A DNA stretch of 64,000 nt from an uncultured Acidobacteriota bacterium (GTDB taxonomy: Bacteria > Acidobacteriota > Thermoanaerobaculia > Multivoradales > UBA5704), in contig CAWCIU010000018.1 of the NCBI GenBank assembly GCA_963795735.1, positions 1,484,684 to 1,548,683 of the forward strand. The letters are read 5' to 3'. The notes under the pieces were generated by a model, which was not told the origin of the DNA, did no database searches, and worked only from the letters and a program-made list of their open reading frames with translations. How positions within the stretch are numbered: position 1 is the stretch's first letter; every line of letters starts with the position of its first letter. A program made the translations under genes and the position numbers. This document shows, piece by piece, positions 114 to 15,630 of this stretch.

Positions 114-1685
114 ATGCGTTGGAATCAGCGGCCGGTATTTCTGCGCCCGCATCGCCCTGTCGCCACCCTCACCGCCGTCGTGAGCCTGCTGGCGGCGGCC
201 GGGAGCCCGGCCCCCGTCCAGGCCACGCCCGCACCCACCACTCCCATCCAGCACGTGGTCGTCATCTTCCAGGAAAACGTCTCTTTCGATCACTATTTCG
301 CGACCTATCCCGTGGCCGCCAACGCCGCCGGCGAGCCGGCCTGGAGCGCGTCGGCCGCGACTCCCAGCGTCAACGGCCTCACCGGGCCGCTGCTCAACCA
401 CAACCCCAACGCCCAGCAGCCCTTCCGCCTCAGCCGCGCGCAGAGCTATACCTGCGACCAGGACCACGACTACACCCCCGAGCAGCAGGCTTTCAACGGC
501 GGCGCGATGGACCGGTTCGTCGAGACGCTCGGCGTCGGCGGCTCGGGCTGCCCGGACTACGGGCACGGGGCCGGCCTGACTATGGGCTACTACGACGGCA
601 ACACCGTGACCGCGCTGTGGAACTATGCCCAGCGCTACGCGATGAGCGACAACTCCTTCGGCACCACCTTCGGGCCCTCGACGCCCGGAGTGATCAACCT
701 GGTCTCGGGGCAGACCGGACGGGTCGACCTCGCGCACACGGTGGGCACGGTTACCGAGGAGGCGGTCATCGACGGCGCCGTGATCGGCGATCCCGATCCC
801 TACTACGACGACTGCGGCAGCCCGACGCAGATCGCCATGAGCGGCCCCAACATCGGCGACCGCCTGAACGCCGCGGGCCTGACCTGGGGCTGGTTCCAGG
901 GCGGCTTCGCCCCCAGTTCCCGGGACGCGGGCGGCAAGGCGACCTGCGCCGCGGCGACCCCGCGCCTCGACGGCACCTCGGTGAAGGACTACAGCGCCCA
1001 TCACCAGCCGTTCCAGTACTACAAGTCGACCTCCAACCCCCATCACCTGCCCCCCACCTCGGCGGCGATGGTCGGGCACACCGACGCGGCGAACCACCAG
1101 TACGACCTGGCGGACTTCTGGAGCGCGGCCGGCGCGGGCAACCTCCCGGCGGTGAGCTTCCTCAAAGCCAAGAAGGGCCAGGACGGGCACGCCGGCTACT
1201 CCTCGCCGCTGGACGAGCAGGTCTTCCTCGTCAACACGCTGAACGCCCTGCAGAAGCTGCCGCAGTGGAGCAGCACCGCGGTGATCATCGCCTACGACGA
1301 TTCGGACGGCTGGTACGACCATGCGATGGGTCCGCTGGTCAATCCGTCCTCCTCCGCCGCCGATGCCCTGAACGGTCCCGGAGTCTGCGGCGACGGCTCC
1401 AAGGCCCTGCGCCACCTCCAGGGGCGCTGCGGCTACGGTCCGCGCCTGCCCCTGCTGGTCGTCTCGCCCTGGGCGAAGACCAACTTCGTCGACCACAGCG
1501 TGACCGATCAGACCTCCATCCTGCGCTTCATCGAGGACAACTGGAGCCTCGGGCGGATCGGCGCCGGCTCCTTCGACCTCCTGGCCGGCCCGCTGAACAA
1601 CCTCTTCGATTTCGCCCGCAAGCAGCCTCGCCACATCGCCCCCTACCTGCTCGACGCCGCGACCGGCGAGCCGGTCAAGCCGTAA
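114..1685 (+). CDS. Secreted phosphoesterase (phospholipase C / AcpA acid phosphatase family)
   Basis: Signal-peptide-like N-terminus; motifs IQHVVVIFQENVSFDHYF, YAMSDN, DDSDGWYDH, GPRLPLLVVSPW, DQTSILRFIE; AGGAGG RBS upstream. Confidence 0.88.
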   Translation: MRWNQRPVFLRPHRPVATLTAVVSLLAAAGSPAPVQATPAPTTPIQHVVVIFQENVSFDHYFATYPVAANAAGEPAWSASAATPSVNGLTGPLLNHNPNAQQPFRLSRAQSYTCDQDHDYTPEQQAFNGGAMDRFVETLGVGGSGCPDYGHGAGLTMGYYDGNTVTALWNYAQRYAMSDNSFGTTFGPSTPGVINLVSGQTGRVDLAHTVGTVTEEAVIDGAVIGDPDPYYDDCGSPTQIAMSGPNIGDRLNAAGLTWGWFQGGFAPSSRDAGGKATCAAATPRLDGTSVKDYSAHHQPFQYYKSTSNPHHLPPTSAAMVGHTDAANHQYDLADFWSAAGAGNLPAVSFLKAKKGQDGHAGYSSPLDEQVFLVNTLNALQKLPQWSSTAVIIAYDDSDGWYDHAMGPLVNPSSSAADALNGPGVCGDGSKALRHLQGRCGYGPRLPLLVVSPWAKTNFVDHSVTDQTSILRFIEDNWSLGRIGAGSFDLLAGPLNNLFDFARKQPRHIAPYLLDAATGEPVKP

Positions 1686-1837: not shown

Positions 1838-2980
1838 CTATCGCTTTTCGAACACGTGCGGCACGAACCGGCCGGTGTTGCCGGTCACCAGCCCGCCTTC
1901 GCGAATTCCCATCCCGGCCGGCGCGCCGTCGACGATCCAGCTGCCCAGAATCGGATAATTGCCGTCGAAATCCGGCAGATCGTAGAGGCCCTGGTAGACG
2001 TAGCCTTCGTGGCCGTAGTCGCCGCCGGTCTCGATGAGCGTGCGGCCGTTCCTGACCACGGTGATGTTGGCGCCCTCTCTGGCCAGGAGCGGCTTGCGGA
2101 CGTAGTCCCGGCTCTTCGGCTCGAAAAAGGTTGGCAGGAGATTGGGGTGCCCCGGCTGCATCTCCCAGAGGACCGCCAGCAGCGCCTTGTTGCTCCACAG
2201 CATCTTCCAGATCGGCTCGATCCAGAGCATCGAATCGTAGCTCTCGGCGATGCGCGGACCGAACTCCTCGTTGACCAGCCACTCCCATGGATAGAGGTGG
2301 AACAGCACGTCGATCGGCCGGTTCTCGAGGTCCACGAAACGCCGCAGGCTGGAATCCCAGCCGACGTCTTCGATCAGGATGGGAACGCTGTCGACGCCGG
2401 CCTGCTGGGCGGTGTCCCGCAGGTAGGTGACGGTCAGCGTGTCCTCGCCGGGATCGTCGTCGACGTGAGTAAAGTGGACGCGGCCGGCGCGCAGGTGCGG
2501 GGCGATGTCCCGCCACTTGGCGACCAGGCTCTCGTGCAGGCTGTTGAACTGATCGTGGCGGGGCAGCACCGCCTGCTTCCACTCCCACTGCACCACCGCC
2601 GCCTCGAAGAGCGCGGTCGGGGTATCGCAGTTGTACTCGAAGAGCTTGGGCGGGCTGGCGCCGTCGTAGCCGAGATCGAAACGGCCATGGAAGAGGGCGG
2701 GCGGCTCCTCGTTCCAGGCGCGCTGGATGAACGGCACGGCCCAGGCGGGGATGCCGAACCGCGCGAAGAGGTTGCGGTCGATGATGTACTGCCCGGCGTC
2801 CATGCAGAGCCCCTGGAGCTCGGCGGTGGCCGCCTCGATCTCGTCGATCTGATCGGCGGTGAAGAGATAGTAGGCGCTCTCGTTCCAGTAGGGCCGGCCG
2901 TCGGCGGTGTGCCAGAGCAGCCCGGCGCGCTCCACCTGCTCCTGCCAGTCGGGACGGGGCTCGATCGGAATCCGCTTCAT
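1838..2980 (-). CDS. Glutathionylspermidine synthase-like ATP-grasp protein (YgiC family)
   Basis: YWNESAYY, GRFDL, KLFEYNCDTPTALFEA, LYPWEW, EPIWK..SNKALL, KPLLAREGAN, GIRE, RFVPH. Confidence 0.9.
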   Translation of the reverse strand: MKRIPIEPRPDWQEQVERAGLLWHTADGRPYWNESAYYLFTADQIDEIEAATAELQGLCMDAGQYIIDRNLFARFGIPAWAVPFIQRAWNEEPPALFHGRFDLGYDGASPPKLFEYNCDTPTALFEAAVVQWEWKQAVLPRHDQFNSLHESLVAKWRDIAPHLRAGRVHFTHVDDDPGEDTLTVTYLRDTAQQAGVDSVPILIEDVGWDSSLRRFVDLENRPIDVLFHLYPWEWLVNEEFGPRIAESYDSMLWIEPIWKMLWSNKALLAVLWEMQPGHPNLLPTFFEPKSRDYVRKPLLAREGANITVVRNGRTLIETGGDYGHEGYVYQGLYDLPDFDGNYPILGSWIVDGAPAGMGIREGGLVTGNTGRFVPHVFEKR

Positions 2981-3025
2981 GTCAATCTCCCGGTATCAGC
3001 CTGGATCTTCCTGGATCCGCCTGGA

Positions 3026-3381
3026 TCAGCTGCCCGCGTGGCCGGAGGCGTGGGCCGAGCTGCCGAAGCCGCCGCGGCTGACGCTGCTGAAACCGCTCGC
3101 AGGGGAAGCTCGAACCGGAAGAGGAGGAGCCGCCCCGAACGGTGGCGCCGAAGGGCGGCATGGCGCCGCCGCCGGTCACGTAGTACCAGTGATGGAAGGA
3201 GCTTCCGGTAGCGGTTGTCCCGGCATTGATCGTCGGGCAGCCGGCGGCCCTGCTGATCGACGCAGACCCGGGTCGAGGACCGGGAGCCGTCGCAGCCGAA
3301 CGCGAGCAGGGCGGCGGAGACCGCCGGCACCAGCACGAGCTTGAACCGGTTCCGGGGTTTCCGGGGTCCGCGGTCGGTCAT
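3026..3381 (-). CDS. YgiB-like small lipoprotein (two apparent frameshifts)
   Basis: Lipobox-like LLAFGC; joining frames gives ...HHWYYVTGGG...SSVSRGGFGSSAHASGHAGS*, with the SRGGFG tail typical of YgiC partners. Confidence 0.6.
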
Positions 3382-3508
3382 AGATTCTCCATACGAAAAA
3401 CCGGCGCGCGGGTTTGCTCTCCGGAGCCTGGCGTCGGTCAGGCTATTTTACCGGACTCGGGCTCTGCTACTCTTCGCTCCCAGTGGACTCCCTGCCTCCG
3501 CGACACGG

Positions 3509-5203
3509 ATGAACCTGCTCGACTCCCGACGCCTGACCGGCCCGAACCTGCTCCTCGACCGCCCGGGAGCGGTGATCGAGGTCTCCCTGTCTCCAGAGGA
3601 GGCTCCCCGGGCGGTGATGGCCTGGACGGCCCAGGTCCGGCGGATGCTCGACGCGGTCGGCTGGGGGGACGAGGAGATCGCGGTCCGGCTCTTCCCCGGC
3701 GGGGCGAGCCTGGCGATCTCGGCCCCCATCGACGGTCTCTATGCCGCGACGGACCTCGCCGACTGGGCCTGGTTCGCGGCCGAGGACGTGATGGCCGGCC
3801 GCCGGGAGCCCGACGTCTCCAAGGCCAAGGAGCTGATCCGGGCGGAGATCGCGCGGGAGGCGAACCCGGCCCTGGTGGCCCTGCGGGACGCCGCCGCGGA
3901 CCGCGGCGTCGCCTTTCTCGCCGACGATCGCCTGGCCTCGGTGGGGCTCGGGGCGGGCTCGCGCTGCTGGCCGGTGGAGGCCCTTCCCCGCCCCGAGGAG
4001 ATCGACTGGAGCGGGATCCACGACGTCCCCGTGCTGCTGGTGACCGGGACCAACGGCAAGACCACCACCGTCCGGCTGCTGGCGGCCATGGTGGACGCCG
4101 CGGAGCGGATGGCCGGGGTGACGTCCACCGACCGCATCGAGGTCGGCGGCGAGGTGATCGAGCCCGGGGACTTCTCCGGCCCCGGCGGCGCCCGCACCCT
4201 GCTGCGCGACCGGCGGGTGGAGGTGGCGATCCTGGAGACCGCCCGCGGCGGCCTGCTGCGGCGGGGGCTGGCGGTGAGCCGGGTGGACGCCGCCCTGGTC
4301 ACCAACATCGCCGCCGATCATCTGGGCGAGTTCGGGGTCCACGACCTGCCGTCGCTGGCCGCGGCCAAGCTGATCGTCGCCAAGGCGGTCGGACCGCGGG
4401 GCCGGGTCGTGCTCAACGCGGACGATCCCGAGCTGGTCGCCGCGGCCGGCCGGCTCCAGGCGCCCATCGTCTGGTTCAGCCTCGACGCCGGAAACCCGCG
4501 GGTGCGGCAGGCCCTGGCGGCGGGAGGCGAGGCGGTCTATCTGGAGGAGGGGTTCCTGGTCCTGGCCCGGGGAGGCGAACAGATCCAGGTGATCCGGTCC
4601 GAGGAGGCGCCGGTCACCTTCGGCGGCGTGGCGCGGCACAACGTCGCCAACGCGCTGGCGGCGATCGCCCTGGCGGCGGCGATCGGCATCCCGACCGAGG
4701 ACATGGCCAAAGGGCTGCGGCGGATCGGCAACAATCCGCGGGACAACCCCGGACGCACCAACCTCTTCGAGCGGGATGGCGTCCGCATCCTGCTCGACTA
4801 CGCCCACAATCCCCACGGCCTCGCGGCGCTGCTCGAGGTCGCCCGCTCCCTCCCCGCGGAGCGCCGGCTGCTGGTGCTCGGCCAGGCCGGCGACCGCGAT
4901 GACGAGGCCCTGCGCGACTTCGCCCGCGCCGCCCTCCCCTTCGAGGCGGACCGCATCGTCCTCAAGGAGCTCTCCGAGATGCTGCGCGGCCGGCCGGAGG
5001 GGGAAGTGCCGGCGATCCTGGAGGGCGAGCTGCTCCGCCTGGGGGTCGCTCCGGAGCGCCTCGAGCGCGCCCCCTCGGAGCTGGAGGCGGTCGAGCAGGC
5101 GCTGGCTTGGGCCCTGCCCGGGGACCTGCTGATCCTGCTGGTCCACAGCCAGCGCGACGCGGTGCTGGAGGTGATCCGGGGCTGGATGGAGCCAGCCGGG
5201 TAG
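3509..5203 (+). CDS. CphA-like Mur ligase (CphA N domain + M domain, no ATP-grasp domain)
   Basis: Start MNLLDSRRLTGPNL parallels CphA MKILETRVYRGPNL; Mur motifs VTGTNGKTTT, ETARGG, NIAADHLG, LNADD, DYAHNPHG, GDRDD; ~565 aa. Confidence 0.82.
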   Translation: MNLLDSRRLTGPNLLLDRPGAVIEVSLSPEEAPRAVMAWTAQVRRMLDAVGWGDEEIAVRLFPGGASLAISAPIDGLYAATDLADWAWFAAEDVMAGRREPDVSKAKELIRAEIAREANPALVALRDAAADRGVAFLADDRLASVGLGAGSRCWPVEALPRPEEIDWSGIHDVPVLLVTGTNGKTTTVRLLAAMVDAAERMAGVTSTDRIEVGGEVIEPGDFSGPGGARTLLRDRRVEVAILETARGGLLRRGLAVSRVDAALVTNIAADHLGEFGVHDLPSLAAAKLIVAKAVGPRGRVVLNADDPELVAAAGRLQAPIVWFSLDAGNPRVRQALAAGGEAVYLEEGFLVLARGGEQIQVIRSEEAPVTFGGVARHNVANALAAIALAAAIGIPTEDMAKGLRRIGNNPRDNPGRTNLFERDGVRILLDYAHNPHGLAALLEVARSLPAERRLLVLGQAGDRDDEALRDFARAALPFEADRIVLKELSEMLRGRPEGEVPAILEGELLRLGVAPERLERAPSELEAVEQALAWALPGDLLILLVHSQRDAVLEVIRGWMEPAG

Positions 5204-5206
5204 GCC

Positions 5207-7909
5207 TTACCCCCTCCCCACCCCGACCAGCTCACCCTGCGGAACGCCGGCGGGCTTCGCCGCGTTCGGCTGGGGTTTGAAGTGGACGATCTGCTCCCAG
5301 ATGCGGTCGAGCTTATCGCCGAAGATCACCACCAGATCTCCCGCGCAGGCCGTCTCCAGGGCCTTGGTGACGGCCTCCTCCTCGCGGAAAACCTGCGGGA
5401 CGATCCGCTCGGCGGGGAAGCCGGCCCCGGTCAGGCCCCGCCGCAGCACGGCGGCTACCTCCCCCGGCTGGCGGTTCCTCAGGTCGTCGTCCTCGCGCAG
5501 CAGGATGAGGTCGAAGGCCGGCGCGGCGGCGCTGGCGAGGGCGGCGATATCCTCGTCGCGGCGGTCGCCGGGCGCGGCGATCACCCCGATCCGCCGGCCG
5601 TGTACGGCGAGCTCGCGCACCGTCCGCGCCACCGCTTCCATGCCGTGGGCGTTGTGGGCGTAGTCGAGGAGGACCCGGAACGGGTGCTCGTTGTAGAAGT
5701 TGAGCCGCCCCGGCGCCTGGAAGAAGTCGTTCGAGAAGGTGCGCAGCCCCTGGCGGATGTTGTCCACCCCGACCCCCATGCCGTGGACGATCGCGGCGGC
5801 GAACATGGCGTTCTGGATGTTGTGGAGCGCCCGCCCCTCGATGGTCGCCGGGATCTGCCGCGCCCAGAGCAGGGGGATCTGCCGCTCGCCCTGGTAGAGC
5901 GCGATCATCCGGCCGTTCAGGCCCTCCTCCAGCACCACCGCCTTGCCCTTGGCGCGGACGTGCTCGCGCACCCGCTCATTCTTGTGATCCATGGTGACCC
6001 AGATCGGCTCGGCCGGGCTCGCCGCGGCCATCGCCGCCACCCGCTCGTCGTCGGCGTTGAGGACGACGTAGTCCTGCGCCACCTCGGCGATGATCTGCTT
6101 GACCTTGGCGAGGTCGTCCACGCTCTCGATGCCGCCGAGACCCAGGTGGTCGGCGGCGACGTTGAGCACCGCGCCGACGTTGCACGTGCGCCAGCCGAGG
6201 CCGGAGCGAACGATGCCGCCGCGGGCGCTTTCGAGCACCGCGGCGTCGATCGTGGGGTCGCGGAGCACCAGCTGGCTCGACCAGGGGCCGGTCATGTCGC
6301 CGCGGACGGTGCGCACACCGTCGATGTAGACGCCGTCGGTCGTCGCCATCCCCACTTTGTGGCCGGAGAGCTTGAGGATGTGCCCCACCATGCGGGTGGT
6401 GGTCGTCTTGCCGTTGGTGCCGGTGATCGCCGCGATGGGGATGCGGAAGCGGGTGCCGCGCGGAAAGAGCATGTCGATCACCGGCCCGGCCACGTCCCGC
6501 GGCTTGCCCTCGGTGGGCGCCAGGTGCATGCGGAAGCCGGGCGCCGCGTTGATCTCGACGATGGCGCCGCCCACCTCCCGGTGGCTGCGGGTGATGTCGG
6601 GGCAGATGAAATCAACGCCGCCGACGTCGAGCCCGATCGCCGCCACCGCCCGCTCGGCCATCAGCCGGTTGTCCTCGTGGATCACGTCCGTCAGGTCGAT
6701 CGCGGTGCCGCCGGTCGACAGGTTGCCCGTCGAGCGGAGGTAGACCACCTGCCCCGCGGCCGGCACGGAGTCGAGCGTCAGGCCGGCGAGCGCGAGCAGG
6801 CGCAGCGCCTGATCGTCGACGGCCAGGCGGGTGAGCACCTTCTCGTGGCCGATGCCGCGCCGGGGATCGGCGTTGACGAGGTCGATCAGCTCGGCGACCG
6901 TGTGCCCGCCGTCCCCCACCACGTGCCCCGGGACCCGCCGGGCCACCGCCACCACCTTGCCGTCGATCACCAGGATGCGGTGGTCCTGGCCCGGCTGGCA
7001 GGCCTCGACGAGCACCCGCGTGGAGAGCTCGCGCGCCTTCTCGTAGGCCGCCAGGACGTCCTCCGCGGTCTTGAGGTTGATCGACACGGCGGTGCCGTGG
7101 TTGCCGTCGAGCGGCTTGACCACCACCGGGAAGCCCAGCCGCTCCGCCTCCTCCACCGCCTCGGCGGCGTCGTAGACGATCGCCTGCCGGGATACGGGAA
7201 GGCCGAGCTGCTCGAGGATCTGGTGGGTCAGCCGCTTGTCGGAGGCGATCTCGGTGGCGATCTGGCGGGTCTCGCTGGTGATGGTCGCCTGGATACGCTT
7301 CTGATACTTGCCGTAGCCGAGCTGCACCAGCGAGCCCTCGTTCAGGCGGATCCACGGGATGTCGCGCTCCTCGGCGGCCTTCACCAGGGCCGCGGTCGAG
7401 GGACCCAGGGCCCGGCGCTGCGCCAGATGGACCAGCTTCTCGAACTCGGAGCGAAAATCGAACGGCGAGGGATCGTAATCCTCGCGCTCGGGAGGGAGCA
7501 GGTGGCGGACGATGCTCAGCGCCAGGTCCCCCGCCGCCAGCCCGACTTCCTCTTCAATGTAGCTGTAGACGACGTGATACTGCCCCTTGGGCAGCCCTTC
7601 GCCCCGGGTCTTGCCGAAGCTGACGGGCGTGCCCGCCAGGCACTGGAGCTCGATGGCGATGTGCTCCAGGACGTGACCGAGCCAGGTCCCCTCCTCCTCC
7701 CTCATCCGGCGCACGAAGCCGCCGTCCTCCCCATAGGAGCAGCCGTGCTGCCAGAGGGTGGGGATCATCTCGAGCAGCCGGTCGGTGAAGCCGGGGAGCT
7801 CGACCGTCGGGAAGCCCTCCAGCTCGCCGAGGTCCAGACGCAGCCGGATCATCGGCCAGAGGGCGTAGAGGTTGGGACCGCGATAGACCCGAGTCTCCAG
7901 GATTTTCAT
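5207..7909 (-). CDS. cphA: Cyanophycin synthetase CphA1
   Basis: 900 aa; N domain HVLEH..ELQ; ATP-grasp VVVKPLDGNHG, NLSTGG, EINAAPGFRMH; Mur domain TGTNGKTTT, DYAHN. Confidence 0.96.
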   Translation of the reverse strand: MKILETRVYRGPNLYALWPMIRLRLDLGELEGFPTVELPGFTDRLLEMIPTLWQHGCSYGEDGGFVRRMREEEGTWLGHVLEHIAIELQCLAGTPVSFGKTRGEGLPKGQYHVVYSYIEEEVGLAAGDLALSIVRHLLPPEREDYDPSPFDFRSEFEKLVHLAQRRALGPSTAALVKAAEERDIPWIRLNEGSLVQLGYGKYQKRIQATITSETRQIATEIASDKRLTHQILEQLGLPVSRQAIVYDAAEAVEEAERLGFPVVVKPLDGNHGTAVSINLKTAEDVLAAYEKARELSTRVLVEACQPGQDHRILVIDGKVVAVARRVPGHVVGDGGHTVAELIDLVNADPRRGIGHEKVLTRLAVDDQALRLLALAGLTLDSVPAAGQVVYLRSTGNLSTGGTAIDLTDVIHEDNRLMAERAVAAIGLDVGGVDFICPDITRSHREVGGAIVEINAAPGFRMHLAPTEGKPRDVAGPVIDMLFPRGTRFRIPIAAITGTNGKTTTTRMVGHILKLSGHKVGMATTDGVYIDGVRTVRGDMTGPWSSQLVLRDPTIDAAVLESARGGIVRSGLGWRTCNVGAVLNVAADHLGLGGIESVDDLAKVKQIIAEVAQDYVVLNADDERVAAMAAASPAEPIWVTMDHKNERVREHVRAKGKAVVLEEGLNGRMIALYQGERQIPLLWARQIPATIEGRALHNIQNAMFAAAIVHGMGVGVDNIRQGLRTFSNDFFQAPGRLNFYNEHPFRVLLDYAHNAHGMEAVARTVRELAVHGRRIGVIAAPGDRRDEDIAALASAAAPAFDLILLREDDDLRNRQPGEVAAVLRRGLTGAGFPAERIVPQVFREEEAVTKALETACAGDLVVIFGDKLDRIWEQIVHFKPQPNAAKPAGVPQGELVGVGRG

Positions 7910-7977
7910 GGTCGCGAGGTCTCCGTATAGATCAGGTTTCCTGGATAAATCGATGCCATTTTTAGAGCAGAAATTAG

Positions 7978-7993
7978 AGCAAAGGGTGTGCCA
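7978..7993 (-). promoter_or_regulatory. Sigma54-type -24/-12 promoter for cphA
   Basis: Minus strand TGGCACACCCTTTGCT with GG and GC exactly 12 nt apart, in an AT-rich gap ~70 nt upstream of the ATG. Confidence 0.65.
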
Positions 7994-8020
7994 TAAGACC
8001 GGGATTAACTCCCGGGCGTT

Positions 8021-8980
8021 CTATTCCCCGCCATCCTCCCCGCCATCCTCGGACGCCACGGAGATCTCTTCCGCTTCCGTCATCACGGCTTCGGTCATTA
8101 CCGGCGGGCGCTCGGGCGAGCGCCGGTCCATGGGCTCGAGGTGGATCATCGGCGGCGGGGTGATCCCCTGGCGGCGCTTCAGGTCGTAGCGGCAGCCGGT
8201 GGTCAGGAAGTCGAGCTTCAATCCCATCATCGCCACCGGCTGGCCGCGGTGGACGGCGTGGCTGTCGGTGAAGCGCATCGCGGAGGCGTCGACCACCATC
8301 ACCGCGCCGGCGCCGAGGACGGACAGCTCACCGTTGCCGCTGAGGATGGCCGCCGTGTCCTCGTCGATGCCCACGCCGAGGGGTTCCGGATTGTAAGAAA
8401 GTGCTGTCAGCAGCCGCCCCAACCGGTCGCGGCGGCGGAAATGCTGATCGATGATCACGTCCGGGGCGAGCCCCAGCCCCTTGGCGAGGTGGACGAGCCG
8501 GCGGCGGGGCGTCGCGCCGCTCTCCCCCAGGGCGATCATGTGCTCGGAGAGCAGGGCCGCGCCCGCGCTGGTGCCGGCCACCACCATGCCGGCGGCGTGG
8601 CGGGCGCGGATGGTCCGGGCGATGTCGGTGCCGCCGAGCACGGAGGAGAGCTTGAGCTGGCTGCCGCCGGTGATGAACAGGCCGGTCGCGTACTCCAGCA
8701 GGTCGTGCGCCTCCGGGCCCGCCTCCATGGCGTCCTCGCGGGTGTCGATCTTGAGCACCTCGACGCTCTCGGCGCGCAGGGCGAGGAAGAGGTCGGCGTA
8801 GCGCTCGCCGGCGTCCGGCGCCTCGGAGGCGGTGGCAAGCACCACGACGCTCGCGTCCGGTCCCCCGGCCGCCTCCAGGAAATAGCGCAGGATGATCCGC
8901 TCGCGGGTCTTGTCCTCGGCGCCGCCGATGGCGATCAGCAGCCCGGGATGGGTGACGTGGGGAATCGTGAGGACGTCCAT
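8021..8980 (-). CDS. cphB: Cyanophycinase
   Basis: LIAIGGAEDK, FITGGSQ, catalytic GTSAGA, IIDQHF, GIDEDTA; upstream of cphA; start taken at MDVLT. Confidence 0.92.
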   Translation of the reverse strand: MDVLTIPHVTHPGLLIAIGGAEDKTRERIILRYFLEAAGGPDASVVVLATASEAPDAGERYADLFLALRAESVEVLKIDTREDAMEAGPEAHDLLEYATGLFITGGSQLKLSSVLGGTDIARTIRARHAAGMVVAGTSAGAALLSEHMIALGESGATPRRRLVHLAKGLGLAPDVIIDQHFRRRDRLGRLLTALSYNPEPLGVGIDEDTAAILSGNGELSVLGAGAVMVVDASAMRFTDSHAVHRGQPVAMMGLKLDFLTTGCRYDLKRRQGITPPPMIHLEPMDRRSPERPPVMTEAVMTEAEEISVASEDGGEDGGE

Positions 8981-8993
8981 GATCCCTTTCCTT

Positions 8994-9044
8994 GGCAAAG
9001 AAAATGCCAGATCACGGTCCAGAGCAGCAGGCACGATTTCTGCT
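8994..9044. promoter_or_regulatory. Back-to-back sigma54-like motifs in the divergent gap
   Basis: Minus TGGCATTTTCTTTGCC (9009-8994) toward cphB; plus AGGCACGATTTCTGCT (9029-9044) toward the 9111 gene; both have 12-nt GG-GC spacing. Confidence 0.45.
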
Positions 9045-9110
9045 ATCTGTGATGATTTGAGGGAATTCGCACAGCGCTCTGTGCCACTTTCTATGCTGGA
9101 GGGAAGAATC

Positions 9111-9944
9111 ATGGAACCGATCGAGACGACCGAGCAGACGCTCTCCTGGACCGATATCGAGGGGTTGTTGCGGGTGGAGACCGGCCGCGAGGCCCAGGGG
9201 GTCGTCCGCCGGCTGCTGTCGCGGGCGGCGCGCAATCAGCGGGAGGGCGCCGCTCCCGCCGAGCTCGCCTGGCCGTCCGAAGCACCCGATGTCCCCGACG
9301 CCTACGAAGAGCCGATCCGCAGGGCGGTCGAGACCACCCGGCGGGTGCGGGAGCAGCGGATGCAGGAGCGGCGCAACGCCGGCCGGCTGTGGGATCTTTT
9401 GGAGAGCCATCCGCCGGCGCGCCGGCGGATGCTGGTCCGCAACGACCGCCGGTTCCATACCTGGGGTCTCTACGACTGCCTGGTCGAGAGGTACCACGTG
9501 TTCCTGGAGCGAGAGCTCGCCGCGGCGACCGAATCGGCGGAGCTCGCCCTGATCGTGGCGCAGAACCTCCCGTCCGCGATCTATGGCGAGGAGCGGGTCC
9601 GCGACTTCGAAGGGGGGGCGCTGATCCTGCTGGGGCAGGCCCGCCGCGTCGGCGCCGATTTCGAGGCGGCGCGGACGGCGCTCGAGCAGGCGGAGGCGGT
9701 GCTCAAGATGGGGACGGGGGACCTGCTGGAGAGGGCCGGCCTGGAGAGCGCGCGGGCCGCGCTGCTGCGCGACCTCGGCCGGCCGGAGGAGGCCGAGCTC
9801 GCCGGACGGCGGGCGATGCGGCTGGCCCATCGCGTGGGCGGACCGCGCGACCGGACGGTGCCGCGGAGCCTGGACGACACCCACCCGGATCTCCGGCACG
9901 GCGGGCGGTTCCCGATCCCGGCGTTCCGGCCGCGGCAGCATTAG
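9111..9944 (+). CDS. Hypothetical helical/TPR-like protein, paralogue A
   Basis: GGAGG RBS; motifs HPPARRRMLVRND, WGL, YGEERVRDF, MGTGDLLE shared with 19163-19945. Confidence 0.75.
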   Translation: MEPIETTEQTLSWTDIEGLLRVETGREAQGVVRRLLSRAARNQREGAAPAELAWPSEAPDVPDAYEEPIRRAVETTRRVREQRMQERRNAGRLWDLLESHPPARRRMLVRNDRRFHTWGLYDCLVERYHVFLERELAAATESAELALIVAQNLPSAIYGEERVRDFEGGALILLGQARRVGADFEAARTALEQAEAVLKMGTGDLLERAGLESARAALLRDLGRPEEAELAGRRAMRLAHRVGGPRDRTVPRSLDDTHPDLRHGGRFPIPAFRPRQH

Positions 9945-9960
9945 CGGCATTAGCGGCATC

Positions 9961-9988
9961 AGATGTAGGGCGGCCACATGGGGCCGCC

Positions 9989-9996
<8 letters not shown>
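9961..9996. repeat. GTAG-type REP-like palindrome, probable bidirectional terminator
   Basis: Perfect 15-bp stem agatgtagggcggcc / ggccgccctacatct with 6-nt loop; overlaps the response regulator stop codon. Confidence 0.75.
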
Positions 9997-10689
<693 letters not shown>

Positions 10690-10693
<4 letters not shown>

Positions 10694-12789
10694 GCGGCTT
10701 CCTCCTCGGTCCGTTCCAGCGGCAGAACGACCCGCATGCGCGTCCCCCGGCCGCCGTTCCCCGGCCCCGCCTCGATGCCCCCGCCGTGCCGTTCGACGAT
10801 CGAGCGGACGATCCAGAGCCCCAGCCCCATGCCGCCCGTCTCCGGCTCCCCTCCTTCGGTCGGTTCGCCATCGCCGGCAACCCGGACGAAGCGGTCGAAC
10901 AGCGCTCCGCCGCCGGCCCCGCCACCCGGCAGCCCGGGCCCCTCGTCCTCCACCCAGAGGGCGATCCGGCCCCCCTCCACCACGCCGCCCACGCGCACCA
11001 CGGATTGGGGCGGCGCGAACTTGTTGGCGTTGGCGAGCAGGTTGACGAACACCTGGGTCAGACGCGGGGCGTCGCCGCGGACTGGCGGCAGCGGATAGGG
11101 CAGCTCGACCTCTACCGTCTGCCCGCGCTGGGCGAGGAGCGGCGCGGTCATCTCCACCGCCTCCTCCACCACCTCGTCCAGGGCCACCGGCCGGGTGCGG
11201 ATCGAATCCTGCCCGGACTCGATCCGCACGCTCTCCAGCAGGTTGTCGATGAGCTGGGTCAGCCGCAGGCTCCCTCGCTCCAGAGAGAGGACGAGGCCGT
11301 GCGCCTGTGGATCGAGGCCCCGCGGATCCTGGAGCAGGCGCTCGCGCAGCAGCTCGATCGAGGCGAGTTGGGCGGAGAGCGGGGTGCGGAACTCGTGGGA
11401 GATGTTGGCGAGCACGGCGTCGCGCTGACGCCGGGCGGCCTCGACGTCCGTCTCGTCGCGCAGCACCTGGAACTGCTGGTCCTCGGTGGGCGGAGCGCTG
11501 GTGATCACCACCACCCGGCGGGTGCCGTCCGGCCGCAACAGGTGCTCGGCGGCGGTGGCACCGCCGCGAAAGCGGGCGTGGACGATCGGGCAGCTCTCGT
11601 CGCAGGGCCGCGAGCCGTCTTTCCCCCGCGGGTTGAGCACGTCGCCGCAGAAGCGGCCGATCGCCGCCTCCGGCTGGACGCCGAGCAGCGCCGCTGCCTG
11701 CGGGTTGAGGTACTGGATGCGGCGGTCGCGGTCGACGCTGAACACCCCCTCGACGATGCCGGTGAGGATCGCCTCCCCCTCGGCCTGCCGGCGGCGCAGC
11801 TCGGAGGTGAGCTGGAGCAGGCGGCGGCGCATCTCCTCCATGGTGGCGGCCAGGGAGCCGAGCTCGGCGCCCGGGGCCCGCGGCGTCGGGGTCGAAAGGT
11901 CGCCGCGGCCGATCCGCGCCGCCGAGGCGGTGAGCGCCTGGACGGGGCGGGTCAGCCGCCGGCTGATCAGCAGCCCGGAAACGGTCGCCAGAGCCGCCAC
12001 CAGCAGCGAGAGGAGGAGCAGCTCGCGCGACAGCCGCGCCAGGGAAGAGGCCACCGCGCCGCGCGGCAGGGAGGTCTCGACCAGCGCCGCGGTCCCGCCG
12101 GAGGGGGCGCGCAGCGGGCGGACCGAGACGTAGAGCCCGGCGCTCTTCAGCTTCCCGGAGCCCGGCCTGCCCGTCGCCTGGACCTCGGCCCGTAGCCGCA
12201 GGAGCGGATTCCCGGCGTCCGCGAGCGCTCTCTCGGGATCGAGAATCCTGACGGGGAGGCCAACCTGGCCCGCGATCTGGCGGGCGAAGCCGGGGTCGAG
12301 CGCCAGAGCGGCCGCGGCGCTGGCGTCCGGAGTGCTGGCGAGCGGCAGGGACGATCCGAGCAGGAGGAGGCCACCCGGCAGCCGCGCGATGCCCGGGCCT
12401 TCGGCGCCGTGCAGCACCTCGCCCCAGGGAATCGGGGCGCCCCCGGAAGCCACCAGCTTTCCCTTGGAGAAGATGGCGACGCCAGAGAGCGAGCTGGTCT
12501 GCCGGAAGCGGTCGAGGAAGGCGGCGAGGCCGGCGGCGTCCCCGCCTTCCACCAGGCGCTTGACCGTGGGACGCTCCGCCAGCAGGTGGACCGACGTCCG
12601 CACATCGCGGGCCGAGCGCTCGACCGCCTCCTGGGCCGCGGCCCCCGCGAGGTTGACCCGCGCCAGCCCCTGCTCGTCCGCGAATCGTTCGATCAGCCCC
12701 AGCGCCGACACGGCGACCCCGATCACCGCCAGCAGGACGAGCCCGGCGTTGAGACCGATCAGGAGGGTGCCGAAGGAGAGGCGTCGCAT
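10690..12789 (-). CDS. Membrane sensor histidine kinase (HAMP-PAS-HisKA-HATPase)
   Basis: Two TM segments, HAMP, PAS with C-x14-C-x3-C, H-box SHEFRTPL, N-box NLLANANKF, DEGPG, GMGLGL. Confidence 0.92.
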
Positions 12790-12816
12790 GGGATTGGAAA
12801 GGTTAGCATTCCTCCC

Positions 12817-13686
12817 CTACCCCCCCGTCCGCCACTCGATCACGCTCTTGATCGCGAGCGTCACCAGGGCGAGCAGGGCGAGGAGCGACGCCACGGCGAA
12901 GGCGGCGGAGAACTGGTACTCGTTGTAGAGGATCTCGACGTGCAGGGGCATGGTGTTGGTCAGCCCCCGCACGTGGCCGGAGACGACCGAGACGGCGCCG
13001 AACTCCCCCATCGCCCGGGCGTTGCAGAGCACCACGCCGTAGAGCAGCCCCCAGCGGATCTTCGGCAGGCTCACCCGGAAGAAGGTCTGGAGACCGGAGG
13101 CCCCGAGCGTCAGCGCCGCCTCCTCCTCGTCGTTGCCCTGCGACTGCATCAGCGGGATCAGCTCGCGCGCCACCATCGGCGAGGTCACGAACATCGTCGC
13201 CAGCACGATGCCCGGCACGGCGAAGATGATCTTGATGTCGTGCGCCGCGAGCCACGGCCCGAAGAAGCCATGGGCGCCGAAGAGCAGCACGTAGATCATC
13301 CCCGAGATCACCGGCGAGACGCTGAACGGCAGGTCGATGAAAGTGATCAGCAGGTTCTTGCCCGGGAAGCGGAACTTGGAGATCGACCACGCCGCGGCGA
13401 GGCCGAAGAGGAGGTTGACCGGCACGGCGATCGCCGCCGCGGTCAGCGTCAGGCGCACGGCGGCGAGCGCCACCGGATCCCGGATCGCCGCGAAGTAGGC
13501 CCCGAAGCCGTCCGCCAGCGCCTTGGCGAAGACCAGCGCCAGCGGAATGAAGAGGAAGAAGCCGAGGAACGTGAGCGCGATCCCCAGGAGAAGCCAGCGG
13601 ACGAGCCGGGGCTCGGAGACGGCGGAGGCCCCCCGCCGCTCCGCCGGGCGCTCTTTCCGTTGAAACGCCGCGACCGCGCCGGCCAT
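12817..13686 (-). CDS. cysW: Sulfate ABC permease CysW
   Basis: [53 protein letters not shown]. Confidence 0.95.
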
Positions 13687-14610
13687 CTAGGAATCCTCCT
13701 CGGCGGAGCGCAGCCGCCGGCCGCGGCGCCAGGCCAGGAAGTTGATCAGCAGCAGGAGCCCGAACGAGGCGACCAGGAAGACCAGCGCCACCGCCGTGGC
13801 CCCCGCGTAGTCGTACTGCTCGAGCTTGATCATGATCAGCAGCGGCACGATCTCCGACTTCATCGGCATATTGCCGGCAATGAAGATCACCGAGCCGTAC
13901 TCGCCCAGGGCGCGCGCGAAGGCGAGCACGAAGCCGGTCATCGCGGCCGGCACCAGCTCCGGGAAGATCACCCGCCGGAAGGTCTGCCAGCGCCCGGCCC
14001 CCAGGCTCGCCGCGGCCTCCTCCACCTCCGGGTCGAGGCCGGCGAGCACCGGCTGCACCGTGCGCACCACGAACGGCAGGCCGATGAAGGTGAGGGCGAT
14101 CACGATCCCCAGGCGGGTGTAGGCCACCTCGACCCCCAGCGGCGCGAGCCAGCGGCCGATCCAGCCGTTCCTGGCATAGAGGGTGGCGAGGGCGATGCCG
14201 GCCACCGCCGTGGGCAGCGCGAACGGCAGGTCCACCAGGGCGTCGACCAGCCGCCGGCCCGGGAAGGTGTAGCGCTCGAGCACCCAGGCGACCAGCAGGC
14301 CGAAGAGGGCGTTGAGCGAGGCGGCGAGGAACGCGGCCCCCAGGCTTAGCCGGTAGGCCGCCAGCGCCCGGGGCCCCGAGACGTCCGCCCAGAACACCGA
14401 CCAGGGGAGCGTCGCCGACTTCAGGAAGACGGTCGACAGCGGGATCAGGATCATCAGACCGAGATAGAGCAGCGTGAAGCCGAGCGAGAGCCCGAAGCCG
14501 GGGAGGACGCTGCCCCCCCGCAGCCGCTGCCGGCGCCGCGCCGAGACCGGCAACGGCGCGGGCAGGCTCGTCACCGGCTCCTCCACCATTTCCACCTCGG
14601 CCTCCTTCAC
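13687..14610 (-). CDS. cysT: Sulfate ABC permease CysT
   Basis: VLPGFGL, DLPFALPTAVAG, EEAAASLGA, GEYGSVIFIAGNMP, KLEQYDY; exact start uncertain. Confidence 0.94.
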   Translation of the reverse strand: MKEAEVEMVEEPVTSLPAPLPVSARRRQRLRGGSVLPGFGLSLGFTLLYLGLMILIPLSTVFLKSATLPWSVFWADVSGPRALAAYRLSLGAAFLAASLNALFGLLVAWVLERYTFPGRRLVDALVDLPFALPTAVAGIALATLYARNGWIGRWLAPLGVEVAYTRLGIVIALTFIGLPFVVRTVQPVLAGLDPEVEEAAASLGAGRWQTFRRVIFPELVPAAMTGFVLAFARALGEYGSVIFIAGNMPMKSEIVPLLIMIKLEQYDYAGATAVALVFLVASFGLLLLINFLAWRRGRRLRSAEEDS

Positions 14611-15630
14611 CTACCGCCCGGCCCCGTAGATCTGATCGAAGACGCCGCCGTCATCGAAGTGGGTCTTCTGCGCCTTGCTCCAGCCGCCGAAGACCTGGTC
14701 GACCGTGAACAGTTGCAGCTTCGGGAACTGCGCCGCGTACTTTGCGGCGACCGCCTCGTTGCGCGGCCGGTAGTAGTGCCTGGCCGCGATCTCCTGTCCC
14801 TCGGAGGTGTAGAGGAACTGGAGGTAGGCGGTGGCGACCTGGGTGGTCTTGTGCCTGGCGGCCACCTTGTCCACCACGGTGACCGGCGGCTCGGCGAGCA
14901 CGCTGACCGACGGCGCCACGATCTGGAAATCCCCCTTGGCGCCCATCGCTCCCTTGACCGCGAGCAGCGCCTCGTTCTCCCAGGCGATCAGCACGTCGCC
15001 GATGCCGCGCTCGACGAAGGTCACGGTGGAGCCGCGGGCCCCGGTGTCGAGGACCGGCACGTTCTTGTAGATCCGCGAGACGAAGTCCTTGGCCTTGTTG
15101 GGATCATTGCCGAATTTGCGCAGGGCGTATCCCCAGGCCGCGAGGTAGTTCCAGCGCGCGCCGCCGGAGGTCTTCGGATTGGGCGTGATCACCGCGACGC
15201 CGGGGCGGGTGAGGTCGTCCCAGTCGCGGATCTTCTTGGGGTACCCCTTGCGTACCAGGAAGACGATCGTCGAGGTATAGGGGCAACTGTTGTTGGGCAG
15301 GCGCGTCTGCCAGTGCCTGGGCGCCAACCCGGAGCCGGCGACGGCATCCACGTCGTAGGCGAGCGCCAGGGTCACCACGTCGGCCTCGAGGCCGTCGATG
15401 ACCGAGCGGGCTTGCTTGCCCGAGCCGCCGTGCGACTGCTGGACGGAGACGTCCTGGCCGGTCTTCGTCTTCCAGGCCCTGGCGAAGGCGCCGTTGACGT
15501 CCTGGTAGAGCTCGCGGGTTGGGTCGTAGGAGACGTTGAGCAGCTTGATTGCCCCGGCATGTGCCGCCTGCACGGAACCCGCGAGCAGGAGGGAGAACCC
15601 GAGCGCGGGAAGAAAGCTTCGGTATCCCAT
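14611..15630 (-). CDS. sbp: Sulfate-binding periplasmic protein
   Basis: [47 protein letters not shown]. Confidence 0.96.

Follow-up and report, generated by a model that had tools for sequence, protein, structure and literature searches.

What does a relative of cyanophycin synthetase do when it lacks the ATP-grasp domain and is encoded beside a complete copy of the enzyme? The question is raised by a stretch of 64,000 nucleotides (nt) from an uncultured Acidobacteriota bacterium (assembly GCA_963795735.1, contig CAWCIU010000018.1), referred to below as the window. In it, the cyanophycinase gene cphB and the cyanophycin synthetase gene cphA1 form a minus-strand operon with cphB upstream, and a further gene converges on this operon. 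The predicted product of this gene joins a reduced CphA-type N domain to a Mur-ligase (M) domain, and we refer to gene and protein as N+M. A preliminary description, made from the letters alone, placed the gene and its locus as we find them but counted 565 residues; the length is 564 residues plus the stop codon.

Current accounts of cyanophycin metabolism comprise CphA1, CphA2, cyanophycinase and dipeptidases. The N+M family would be a fifth conserved component, and we consider it most likely, with a rough probability of one half, that its members would be ATP-dependent ligases joining an amino acid to the side chains of Asp in cyanophycin, whether they act in trans or as partners of CphA1. 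Because the family nearly always accompanies cyanophycin genes, it is probably a new player in the making of this polymer.

CphA1 architecture without the G domain

In the 564-residue protein, Pfam recognises only Mur_ligase_M (PF08245, 88 bits) and Mur_ligase_C (PF02875, 64 bits; ranges in Table 1). No ATP-grasp family matches it, whereas the neighbouring CphA1 matches Cyanophycin_syn, several ATP-grasp families and the Mur domains, and comprises an N domain with HVLEH at residues 79-83, an ATP-grasp G domain and an M domain with both Mur domains. Residues 173-544 of N+M align with residues 490-863 of this neighbour at 38% identity (378 columns, E 1e-57), and CphA residues ~204-489 have no counterpart in either BLAST or hhalign. 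The cyanophycin synthetase model TIGR02068 gives 377.5 bits, over model positions 477-855 only, and thus misses its cut-off of 850. In the reverse direction, the profile of the N+M family finds residues 488-854 of SuCphA1 with 300 bits, and the next non-CphA match has 90 bits.

The N-terminal part is more diverged. BLAST and Pfam find nothing in the first 170 residues, and PF18921, the model for the Cyanophycin_syn N domain, gives no match even at E <= 10 on the N-termini of the ten members tried. The relation of the N domain to that of CphA therefore rests on hhalign and on the fold. When a profile of 70 family N-termini was compared by hhalign with a profile of 40 CphA N-termini, residues 1-151 were aligned with CphA 1-203 with a probability of 84% (E 7.5e-6). 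In this alignment MNLLDSRRLTGPNLL of N+M is paired with MKILETRVYRGPNLY of CphA, and NPALVALRDAAADRGV...SVGLG with GPSTAALVKAAEERDI...VQLGYG, which represents the first elements of the G core. The N domain is ~50 residues shorter than that of CphA and lacks the HxxEH motif, found in 0 of 72 and 0 of 59 N-termini of the N+M family versus 40 of 40 CphA. Other positions are strictly kept: E117, L125, A129, D139, G146, G148 and W167 are invariant in 19 diverse members.

Structure prediction settles the matter. An AlphaFold (AF2) model built on 32 homologues reached a predicted local distance difference test score (pLDDT) of 91.1 and a predicted template modelling score (pTM) of 0.90, and in a Foldseek search with it ranks 1-9 were all CphA1 chains. 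VIA-align superposes residues 1-560 of the model on residues 1-877 of TeCphA1 (7wae_A) with Z 48.4 and a root mean square deviation of 2.8 A; the 553 aligned residues of 564 spread over the whole chain and skip the G region. The best non-CphA row is MurC, with Z 32.5 over 342 residues, and begins only at residue 149. The fold of the whole protein matches 7wae_A, which shows N and M to be packed as in CphA1. An ESM Atlas search with residues 1-172 returned a best score of 0.89 and a Cyanophycin_syn cluster at 0.78, which serve as leads only.

Going by these models, the N+M protein is a CphA1 in which residues ~204-489 (the rest of Gcore, Glid and Gomega) are exchanged for a linker of ~20 residues. 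Its derivation from a CphA-type enzyme, with the first helix-strand elements of the G core kept, is supported. The preliminary description had read a CphA-like N-terminus, a retained segment before the ATP-grasp, the loss of the ATP-grasp core and of HxxEH, and an intact Mur-ligase domain. These readings all stand, and the absence of the G domain, for which it proposed profile searches and structure prediction, is confirmed by Pfam, TIGR02068 and the AlphaFold model in VIA-align.

Conservation of the Mur-type active site

The catalytic positions of the CphA1 M site can be followed into N+M by alignment to hidden Markov models. Residues N497, K499, T500, T522 and E558 of SuCphA1/TeCphA1 fall on N182, K184, T185, T207 and E243 at a fixed offset, and D585, H586, R731 and H748 on D270, H271, R416 and H433. 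In its accessible parts, PMC9427784 lists K499, the Mg ligands T500, T522 and E558, the Mlid residues R731 and H748, which touch ATP, and N497, which stacks on the adenine. The accessible text of PMC9262961 gives D585A/H586A as the mutation that inactivates the M site of SuCphA1.

These residues are also under strong conservation. A MAFFT alignment of 72 N+M members with 40 CphA contains 45 M-domain columns in which one residue, shared by both sets, reaches a conservation of at least 90%, including N182, K184, E243, D270, H271, R416, H433, N434 and R493-G494-R495. Only M-domain columns were used, as alignment of the whole proteins put the N-terminus of N+M on the G domain. In 32 close N+M homologues, K184, T207, E243, D270, H271, R416 and H433 are invariant. 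Because GTNGKT is lost in 4 of 40 CphA-like paralogues of the same data, M-site motifs do erode where they are not needed. The N+M family possesses a complete and conserved Mur-type active site of the CphA kind.

We also considered replacement by N+M of a dead M domain in the partner CphA1; this was rejected, as the partners keep GTNGKT and the other motifs.

Association with cyanophycin genes

Among 401 Acidobacteriota species genomes surveyed (matches at E <= 1e-30, three candidates scored per genome), 54 had a match; 27 of them carry the N+M type and 27 further ones only CphA-type genes. A CphA-type gene is also present in 26 of the 27 N+M genomes. Homologues mostly without cphA, which the preliminary description had named as the outcome that would speak against its proposal, were therefore not found. 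The N+M gene lies directly downstream of a CphA-type gene on the same strand in 23 of the 27. Exceptions in order are the present genome (convergent), G365 (divergent) and G266, where the two genes are on different contigs; in G235 the N+M gene is a fragment at a contig end of an 81%-complete genome. In the loci that were fetched, the usual order is cphB, cphA1 (~930 residues), N+M.

A metagenome set was found with the N-terminal alignment and comprises the best 80 of 497 confirmed loci, so that it leans towards relatives of the window. Here cphA is directly upstream on the same strand in 36 loci, convergent as in the window in 16 and otherwise nearby in 4; only cphB is seen in 3, and neither gene in 21, of which 19 have short flanks. 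Where at least 3 kb are available on both sides, cphA is present in 19 of 21 loci. Likewise, each of the 18 tandem loci whose upstream side reaches 4.2 kb or more contains cphB. In 47 tandem loci, the N+M start follows the cphA stop at a median distance of 12 nt, with 23 loci at 10 nt or less and 43 at 40 nt or less. A further cluster of open reading frames (ORFs), assigned to iadA through one representative (TIGR01975, 371 bits, cut-off 331), is found in 16 of 100 N+M loci; it is present at the head of the operon in 14 of 30 assessable tandem loci, in 12 of them directly upstream of cphB. N+M is normally the last, tightly coupled gene of an (iadA-)cphB-cphA1 operon.

In one metagenome locus (L075; Table 1) a single frame of 1553 residues comprises CphA1 (57-941), a linker of ~40 residues and N+M (982-1537). 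This single case could be a natural fusion or the result of a stop codon lost in assembly. A search with the N-terminus for fused or longer forms found none among 3334 candidates, which is weak evidence. In five other metagenome loci (L063, L064, L066, L072 and L077) two cphB-cphA pairs flank the N+M gene. The N+M proteins of L067 and L076, which are ~61% identical to the N-terminus of the window protein, are encoded with no cphA or cphB within 10 kb.

Size and naming of the family

Searching 1.84 billion representatives with the N-terminal 172 residues retrieved 641 clusters at 50% identity (E <= 1e-3). Full-length N+M members have ~555-612 residues, and none among the 150 listed is longer than 612. 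By source names the organisms are Thermoanaerobaculia, Acidobacteria, SAR324 and Myxococcales, and the proteins carry generic or automatic names: 'Mur ligase family protein', 'hypothetical protein', 'cyanophycin synthetase' and 'UDP-N-acetylmuramyl tripeptide synthase'. A search of the genome contigs for related loci with the single protein found one locus only.

Neither Pfam nor NCBIfam has a model for the family. The name 'CphA3', which might suggest itself, is used in print for an Aeromonas beta-lactamase. Literature searches on reduced cyanophycin synthetases and on genes downstream of cphA found no description of such a protein, although supplementary tables or other papers might hold a mention; this agrees with the view of the preliminary description that there is no characterised member. 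The N+M gene is without mention in the accessible parts of PMC10206079, PMC10687191, PMC11915815 and PMC8528874.

Some gene copies are irregular (Table 1). The N+M copy of G069 contains an in-frame TAG, that of G388 lies in two frames, and in G082 cphA is divided between two ORFs; all of these could be pseudogenes or sequencing errors.

Relationship to the partner CphA1

A tree of 116 M domains was built with a short IQ-TREE search (LG+G4) and rooted with the genome's own MurE and MurF. Support is given by the Shimodaira-Hasegawa-like approximate likelihood ratio test (SH-aLRT) only, and in this quick search several long branches were flagged. The 56 M domains of N+M proteins form one clade (96), and the 58 CphA M domains are on the other side of the tree (84). 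N+M groups with the CphA M domains and apart from MurE and MurF of the genome (97), so that clustering with MurE or MurF, which the preliminary description had named as contrary to its proposal, is not observed. The CphA proteins encoded next to N+M form one subclade of 40 rows (99), and sub-groupings recur in the N+M and the CphA halves of the tree. Moreover, pairwise identities of N+M and of the partner CphA are correlated (r 0.65 for 32 loci, giving 496 non-independent pairs). Given the separate N+M clade, the sub-groupings repeated in both halves and the correlated identities, the N+M gene is an old paralogue that was passed on jointly with one CphA1 lineage, and no recent deletion derivative of its neighbour.

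Proposed function and alternatives

The N+M protein is a stand-alone 'M-site module' of CphA1, with a reduced N domain set against a complete Mur-type ligase. Its architecture, the conserved catalytic residues, the separate clade and the synteny are observed; what it acts on, which reaction it carries out and how it cooperates with CphA1 we infer as follows. It would bind ATP-Mg as the M domain of CphA1 does, phosphorylate a free beta-carboxyl on an Asp that ends a cyanophycin chain or an intermediate, and then join the amino group of an amino acid to the activated Asp. Arg is the most economical guess for this amino acid. The enzyme would work beside CphA1, free or as an accessory subunit, and could not extend the Asp backbone because it has no ATP-grasp G domain. 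The tight coupling with cphA points to a partner of CphA1 no less than to an editing enzyme that acts freely.

Several points weigh against this proposal. The M domain of the partner CphA1 is apparently intact, with GTNGKT in all partner rows, so that the need for a second site for adding Arg is not obvious. Stability may be the only reason why the N domain is kept, and its presence is no proof of polymer binding: in the accessible text of PMC10273328 the N domain of CphA2 is said to serve stability, and in that of PMC9262961 the isolated N domain of SuCphA1 is insoluble without the M domain. Residues S603 and E607, through which SuCphA1 touches cyanophycin at the N-domain site, are not conserved and correspond to L288 and R292. 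The evolution of N+M is also more rapid than that of the partner CphA (mean pairwise identity 0.53 versus 0.64), and the tree was made without cyanobacterial or proteobacterial CphA1, which limits what it says on the depth of the split. In addition, two of the 21 well-flanked metagenome loci (L067 and L076) have no cphA within 10 kb, N+M and the CphA-type gene of G266 are on different contigs, and two or three copies look broken (among them G069 with its in-frame TAG and the split copy of G388).

If the proposed ligase activity is right, the reaction of the M site would be isolated in one protein of 560 residues, so that the side-chain step could be tested separately, and side chains of choice might be put on poly-Asp with this protein as a tool. 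This would concern an enzyme common in soil and sediment Acidobacteriota and, by source names, present in SAR324 and Myxococcales. A bolder extension, to which we give a tentative and rather low weight, makes N+M a third class of cyanophycin enzyme. It would be a side-chain ligase that either adds a non-Arg residue or a cap, or docks on CphA1, so that the two proteins form a synthetase whose M sites are additional or specialised. With a non-Arg residue or a cap, soil Acidobacteriota and other phyla would have a chemically distinct cyanophycin; either way, N+M would be a portable module of natural origin by which poly-Asp chains are 'decorated'.

Taken by itself, the use of a nucleophile other than Arg (Lys, Orn, Glu or an amine), giving a mixed or capped cyanophycin, seems unlikely to us. 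It would be the most sensible use of a second ligase beside a CphA1 with its own M site, and it finds some sequence correlates. Conserved and specific to the N+M family are W167, R229, R233, R252 and G458, and N+M reads 'DNPGR' (D412-N413 before PGR) where CphA has 'Q[AT]PGR'; these residues are candidates for mutagenesis. Moreover, CphA has D807, D808 and D809 (in 30, 22 and 18 of 40) where N+M has [LM]488-P489-x-Y491 (Y in 49 of 72), and this stretch, 'DDD-L-R' in CphA and '[LM]-P-x-Y-L-R' in N+M, aligns with 'SDNPR' of the genome's own MurE. The DNPR stretch has a role in the specificity of MurE. The argument is weakened by a clade of sole, presumably working CphA1 (L027-L031), which also reads 'GHYLR' here. 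The LPxY-type motif hence does not track the use of Arg, and the difference between 'DDD' and 'LPxY' was given less weight as a hint that the substrate is not Arg. According to the accessible text of PMC8560796, both natural and engineered cyanophycins are known whose side chains are Lys, Orn, citrulline or Glu, but next to the operon no gene for making an unusual amino acid is conserved.

The very short distances between cphA and N+M (median 12 nt) are typical of co-translated partners, and bring in a reading of N+M as mainly a subunit, structural or regulatory, that forms a hetero-oligomeric synthetase together with CphA1 and whose own catalysis would be secondary or dispensable. We regard this as improbable. 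It would fit the co-diversification with one CphA1 subclade (40 rows, support 99), the one apparent CphA1-N+M fusion frame and, in the accessible text of PMC9427784, the contacts that the Mcore of CphA1 makes with G cores in the tetramer. The catalytic residues of N+M are at least 90% conserved in 72 members, which sets the family apart from the degenerate CphA-like paralogues and from CphA2 with its inactive M domain (as far as the accessible sources describe it), and the fusion is the only one among 100 loci, with the empty search for longer forms adding weak evidence.

A priming enzyme, making beta-Asp-Arg from free Asp and Arg or arginylating very short intermediates and thereby hastening the steps at which CphA1 starts poorly, is a still more doubtful candidate. 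In its accessible parts, PMC9262961 describes CphA1 as very slow at the first steps, for example the joining of Asp with Arg into beta-Asp-Arg, which is M-site chemistry, and the N+M family has no HxxEH peptidase site to generate primers. However, HxxEH is present in 40 of 40 CphA, partners included, so that CphA should make its own primers once some polymer exists, and nothing in the sequence indicates free Asp as a substrate.

The automatic names, such as 'UDP-N-acetylmuramyl tripeptide synthase', and a Pfam result of Mur-ligase domains only could suggest an ordinary Mur-family ligase of the cell wall, folate or poly-glutamate type that merely adjoins cphA. This is very improbable: with the MurE, MurF, FolC and MurT models the scores stay far under the cut-offs and under that of the CphA model, the N-terminus is folded like the N domain of CphA and not like that of a Mur ligase, and cphA is a conserved neighbour in two different gene orders. 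The M domain groups with those of CphA (support 97), and MurE and MurF of this genome are on another contig. Hardly any weight is left for a decaying remnant of a duplicated cphA without its G domain, for which faster evolution than the partner and a few broken-looking copies could be cited, because the conservation data contradict it: 641 clusters of constant length, an own clade across several phyla, and open frames with invariant active-site residues.

Comparison with known systems

The ligase proposed here has likenesses to four known groups. With CphA1 (7LG5, 7LGJ, 7LGQ, 7WAC and 7WAE) N+M shares the N-domain fold, Mcore and Mlid, the ATP/Mg and catalytic residues, the arrangement of N and M, and the operon. 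It differs by the missing ATP-grasp G domain, by the N domain that is ~50 residues shorter and without Cx19HxxEH (a motif of 83% of CphA1 in the accessible text of PMC9262961), and by its separate clade and TIGR02068 score (377 bits, cut-off 850). CphA2 likewise derives from CphA1 by reduction and has an N domain free of the peptidase motif, as far as described in the accessible parts of PMC9262961 and PMC10273328. Its reduction is the opposite one: in CphA2 the G domain is active and the M domain is truncated and inactive, whereas N+M has a complete M domain and no G domain. The preliminary description had called CphA2 the opposite half-enzyme, which agrees with the accessible text of PMC10273328.

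MurE and other Mur ligases (for example 1E8C) share the central and C-terminal domains, the P-loop, and the chemistry in which a carboxylate is activated as acyl-phosphate before an amino acid is added. N+M has another N-terminal domain and is not in a cell-wall gene cluster, and on the best Mur model, TIGR01085 for MurE, it scores 107.4 bits against a cut-off of 257.3. A CphA paralogue beside a canonical cphA is not without precedent: Fuser and Steinbuchel in 2007 and Adames in 2013 are said to have described a degenerate 'CphA prime' next to cphA in beta-proteobacteria. That protein is full-length with three domains, and the comparable acidobacterial paralogues of L035, L036, L044 and L045 lack the P-loop of the M domain, whereas N+M lost the G domain and kept the M site.

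Gene layout and neighbouring genes

The G+C content is ~70% across the region, for which reason many long frames are spurious. Family matches single out three frames: the N+M gene, cphA1 and cphB. The start of N+M at ATG 3509 agrees with the conserved N-terminus of the family, M-x-L-x-DSRRLTG, in the family alignment. No terminator-like site was found between the stop codons of N+M and cphA, and a promoter and terminator scan of 2900-5400 was empty.

Table 1. Positions of the N+M gene, its domains, neighbouring genes and related genes; positions are those of the window unless a locus or contig is named
Feature	Position	Strand	Remarks
N+M gene (G-less CphA paralogue)	3509..5203	+	564 residues plus stop; TAG at 5201-5203
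N+M residues 1-117, reduced CphA-type N domain	3509..3859	+	hhalign, VIA-align, secondary structure
N+M residues 118-172, first G-core elements (NPALVALRDAAADRGV...SVGLG) and short linker	3860..4024	+	hhalign against CphA 166-203
N+M residues 173-410, Mur-ligase central domain (Mcore)	4025..4738	+	Pfam Mur_ligase_M 178-389; P-loop GTNGKT (K184), T207, E243, D270-H271
N+M residues 411-564, Mur-ligase C-terminal domain (Mlid)	4739..5200	+	Pfam Mur_ligase_C 415-543; R416, H433, R493-G494-R495 stretch
Gap between convergent stop codons of N+M and cphA	5204..5206	.	3 nt
cphA1, cyanophycin synthetase 1	5207..7909	-	900 residues; TIGR02068 1150 bits, cut-off 850
cphB, cyanophycinase	8021..8980	-	319 residues; Peptidase_S51; TIGR02069 260.7 bits, cut-off 126.6
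Phosphoesterase gene	114-1685		
Glutathionylspermidine-synthase-like ATP-grasp gene	1838-2980	-	PF03738 481 bits
ORF of 134 residues	2977-3381	-	no family match; precedes the previous gene
Regulator, kinase and transporter genes	9989-15630	-	upstream of cphB
Second cphB-cphA1 operon of the genome	G000:C18:1466631-1470000		L025, L128
CphA1-N+M frame	L075:3793-8454	+	1553 residues
N+M copy with in-frame TAG	G069 C9:2710023-2711684		L010
N+M copy in two frames	G388 C69:14404-16260		L022
cphA split into two ORFs	G082 C2:5511758-5512895		L008
P-loop-less CphA paralogue	L035:5350-7992	+	beside or near canonical cphA
P-loop-less CphA paralogue	L036:8949-11606	-	beside or near canonical cphA
P-loop-less CphA paralogue	L044:6623-9316	-	beside or near canonical cphA
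P-loop-less CphA paralogue	L045:6378-9050	-	beside or near canonical cphA
ATP-grasp protein of ~630 residues	L036:13102-14991	-	directly after cphB
ATP-grasp protein of ~630 residues	L045:9063-11039	-	directly after cphB
ATP-grasp protein of ~630 residues	L035:1839-3725	+	directly after cphB

On the other side of N+M, the glutathionylspermidine-synthase-like gene and the small ORF are transcribed away from it, and such a gene beside N+M was not seen in any other locus compared. Upstream of cphB and on its strand follow genes for a response regulator of the OmpR type, for a HAMP/PAS histidine kinase and for an ABC transporter with two permeases and a solute-binding protein; 9000-9989 gave no family match. 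The flanking phosphoesterase, glutathionylspermidine-synthase-like, regulator, kinase and transporter genes are not conserved beside N+M in the compared loci. The second cphB-cphA1 operon of the genome lies ~21 kb before the start of the window. Its CphA1 (TIGR02068 1142 bits) is 72% identical to that of the window, and the genome has one N+M gene only.

Two other kinds of CphA relatives were met in the compared loci (Table 1). The first are full-length CphA-like paralogues that keep HxxEH and have lost GTNGKT (reading, for example, GTLGKT); they form a clade of their own in the M-domain tree. The second are proteins of ~630 residues covering CphA ~9-578, with Pfam matches to ATP-grasp only and no Mur domains, which occur in Acidobacteriota genomes without an N+M gene. 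From their domain content, the latter have a CphA2-like architecture, with a G domain and a truncated M domain, outside cyanobacteria. CphA1 has thus been reduced in both directions, to G-only forms, also in Acidobacteriota, and to M-only forms such as N+M.

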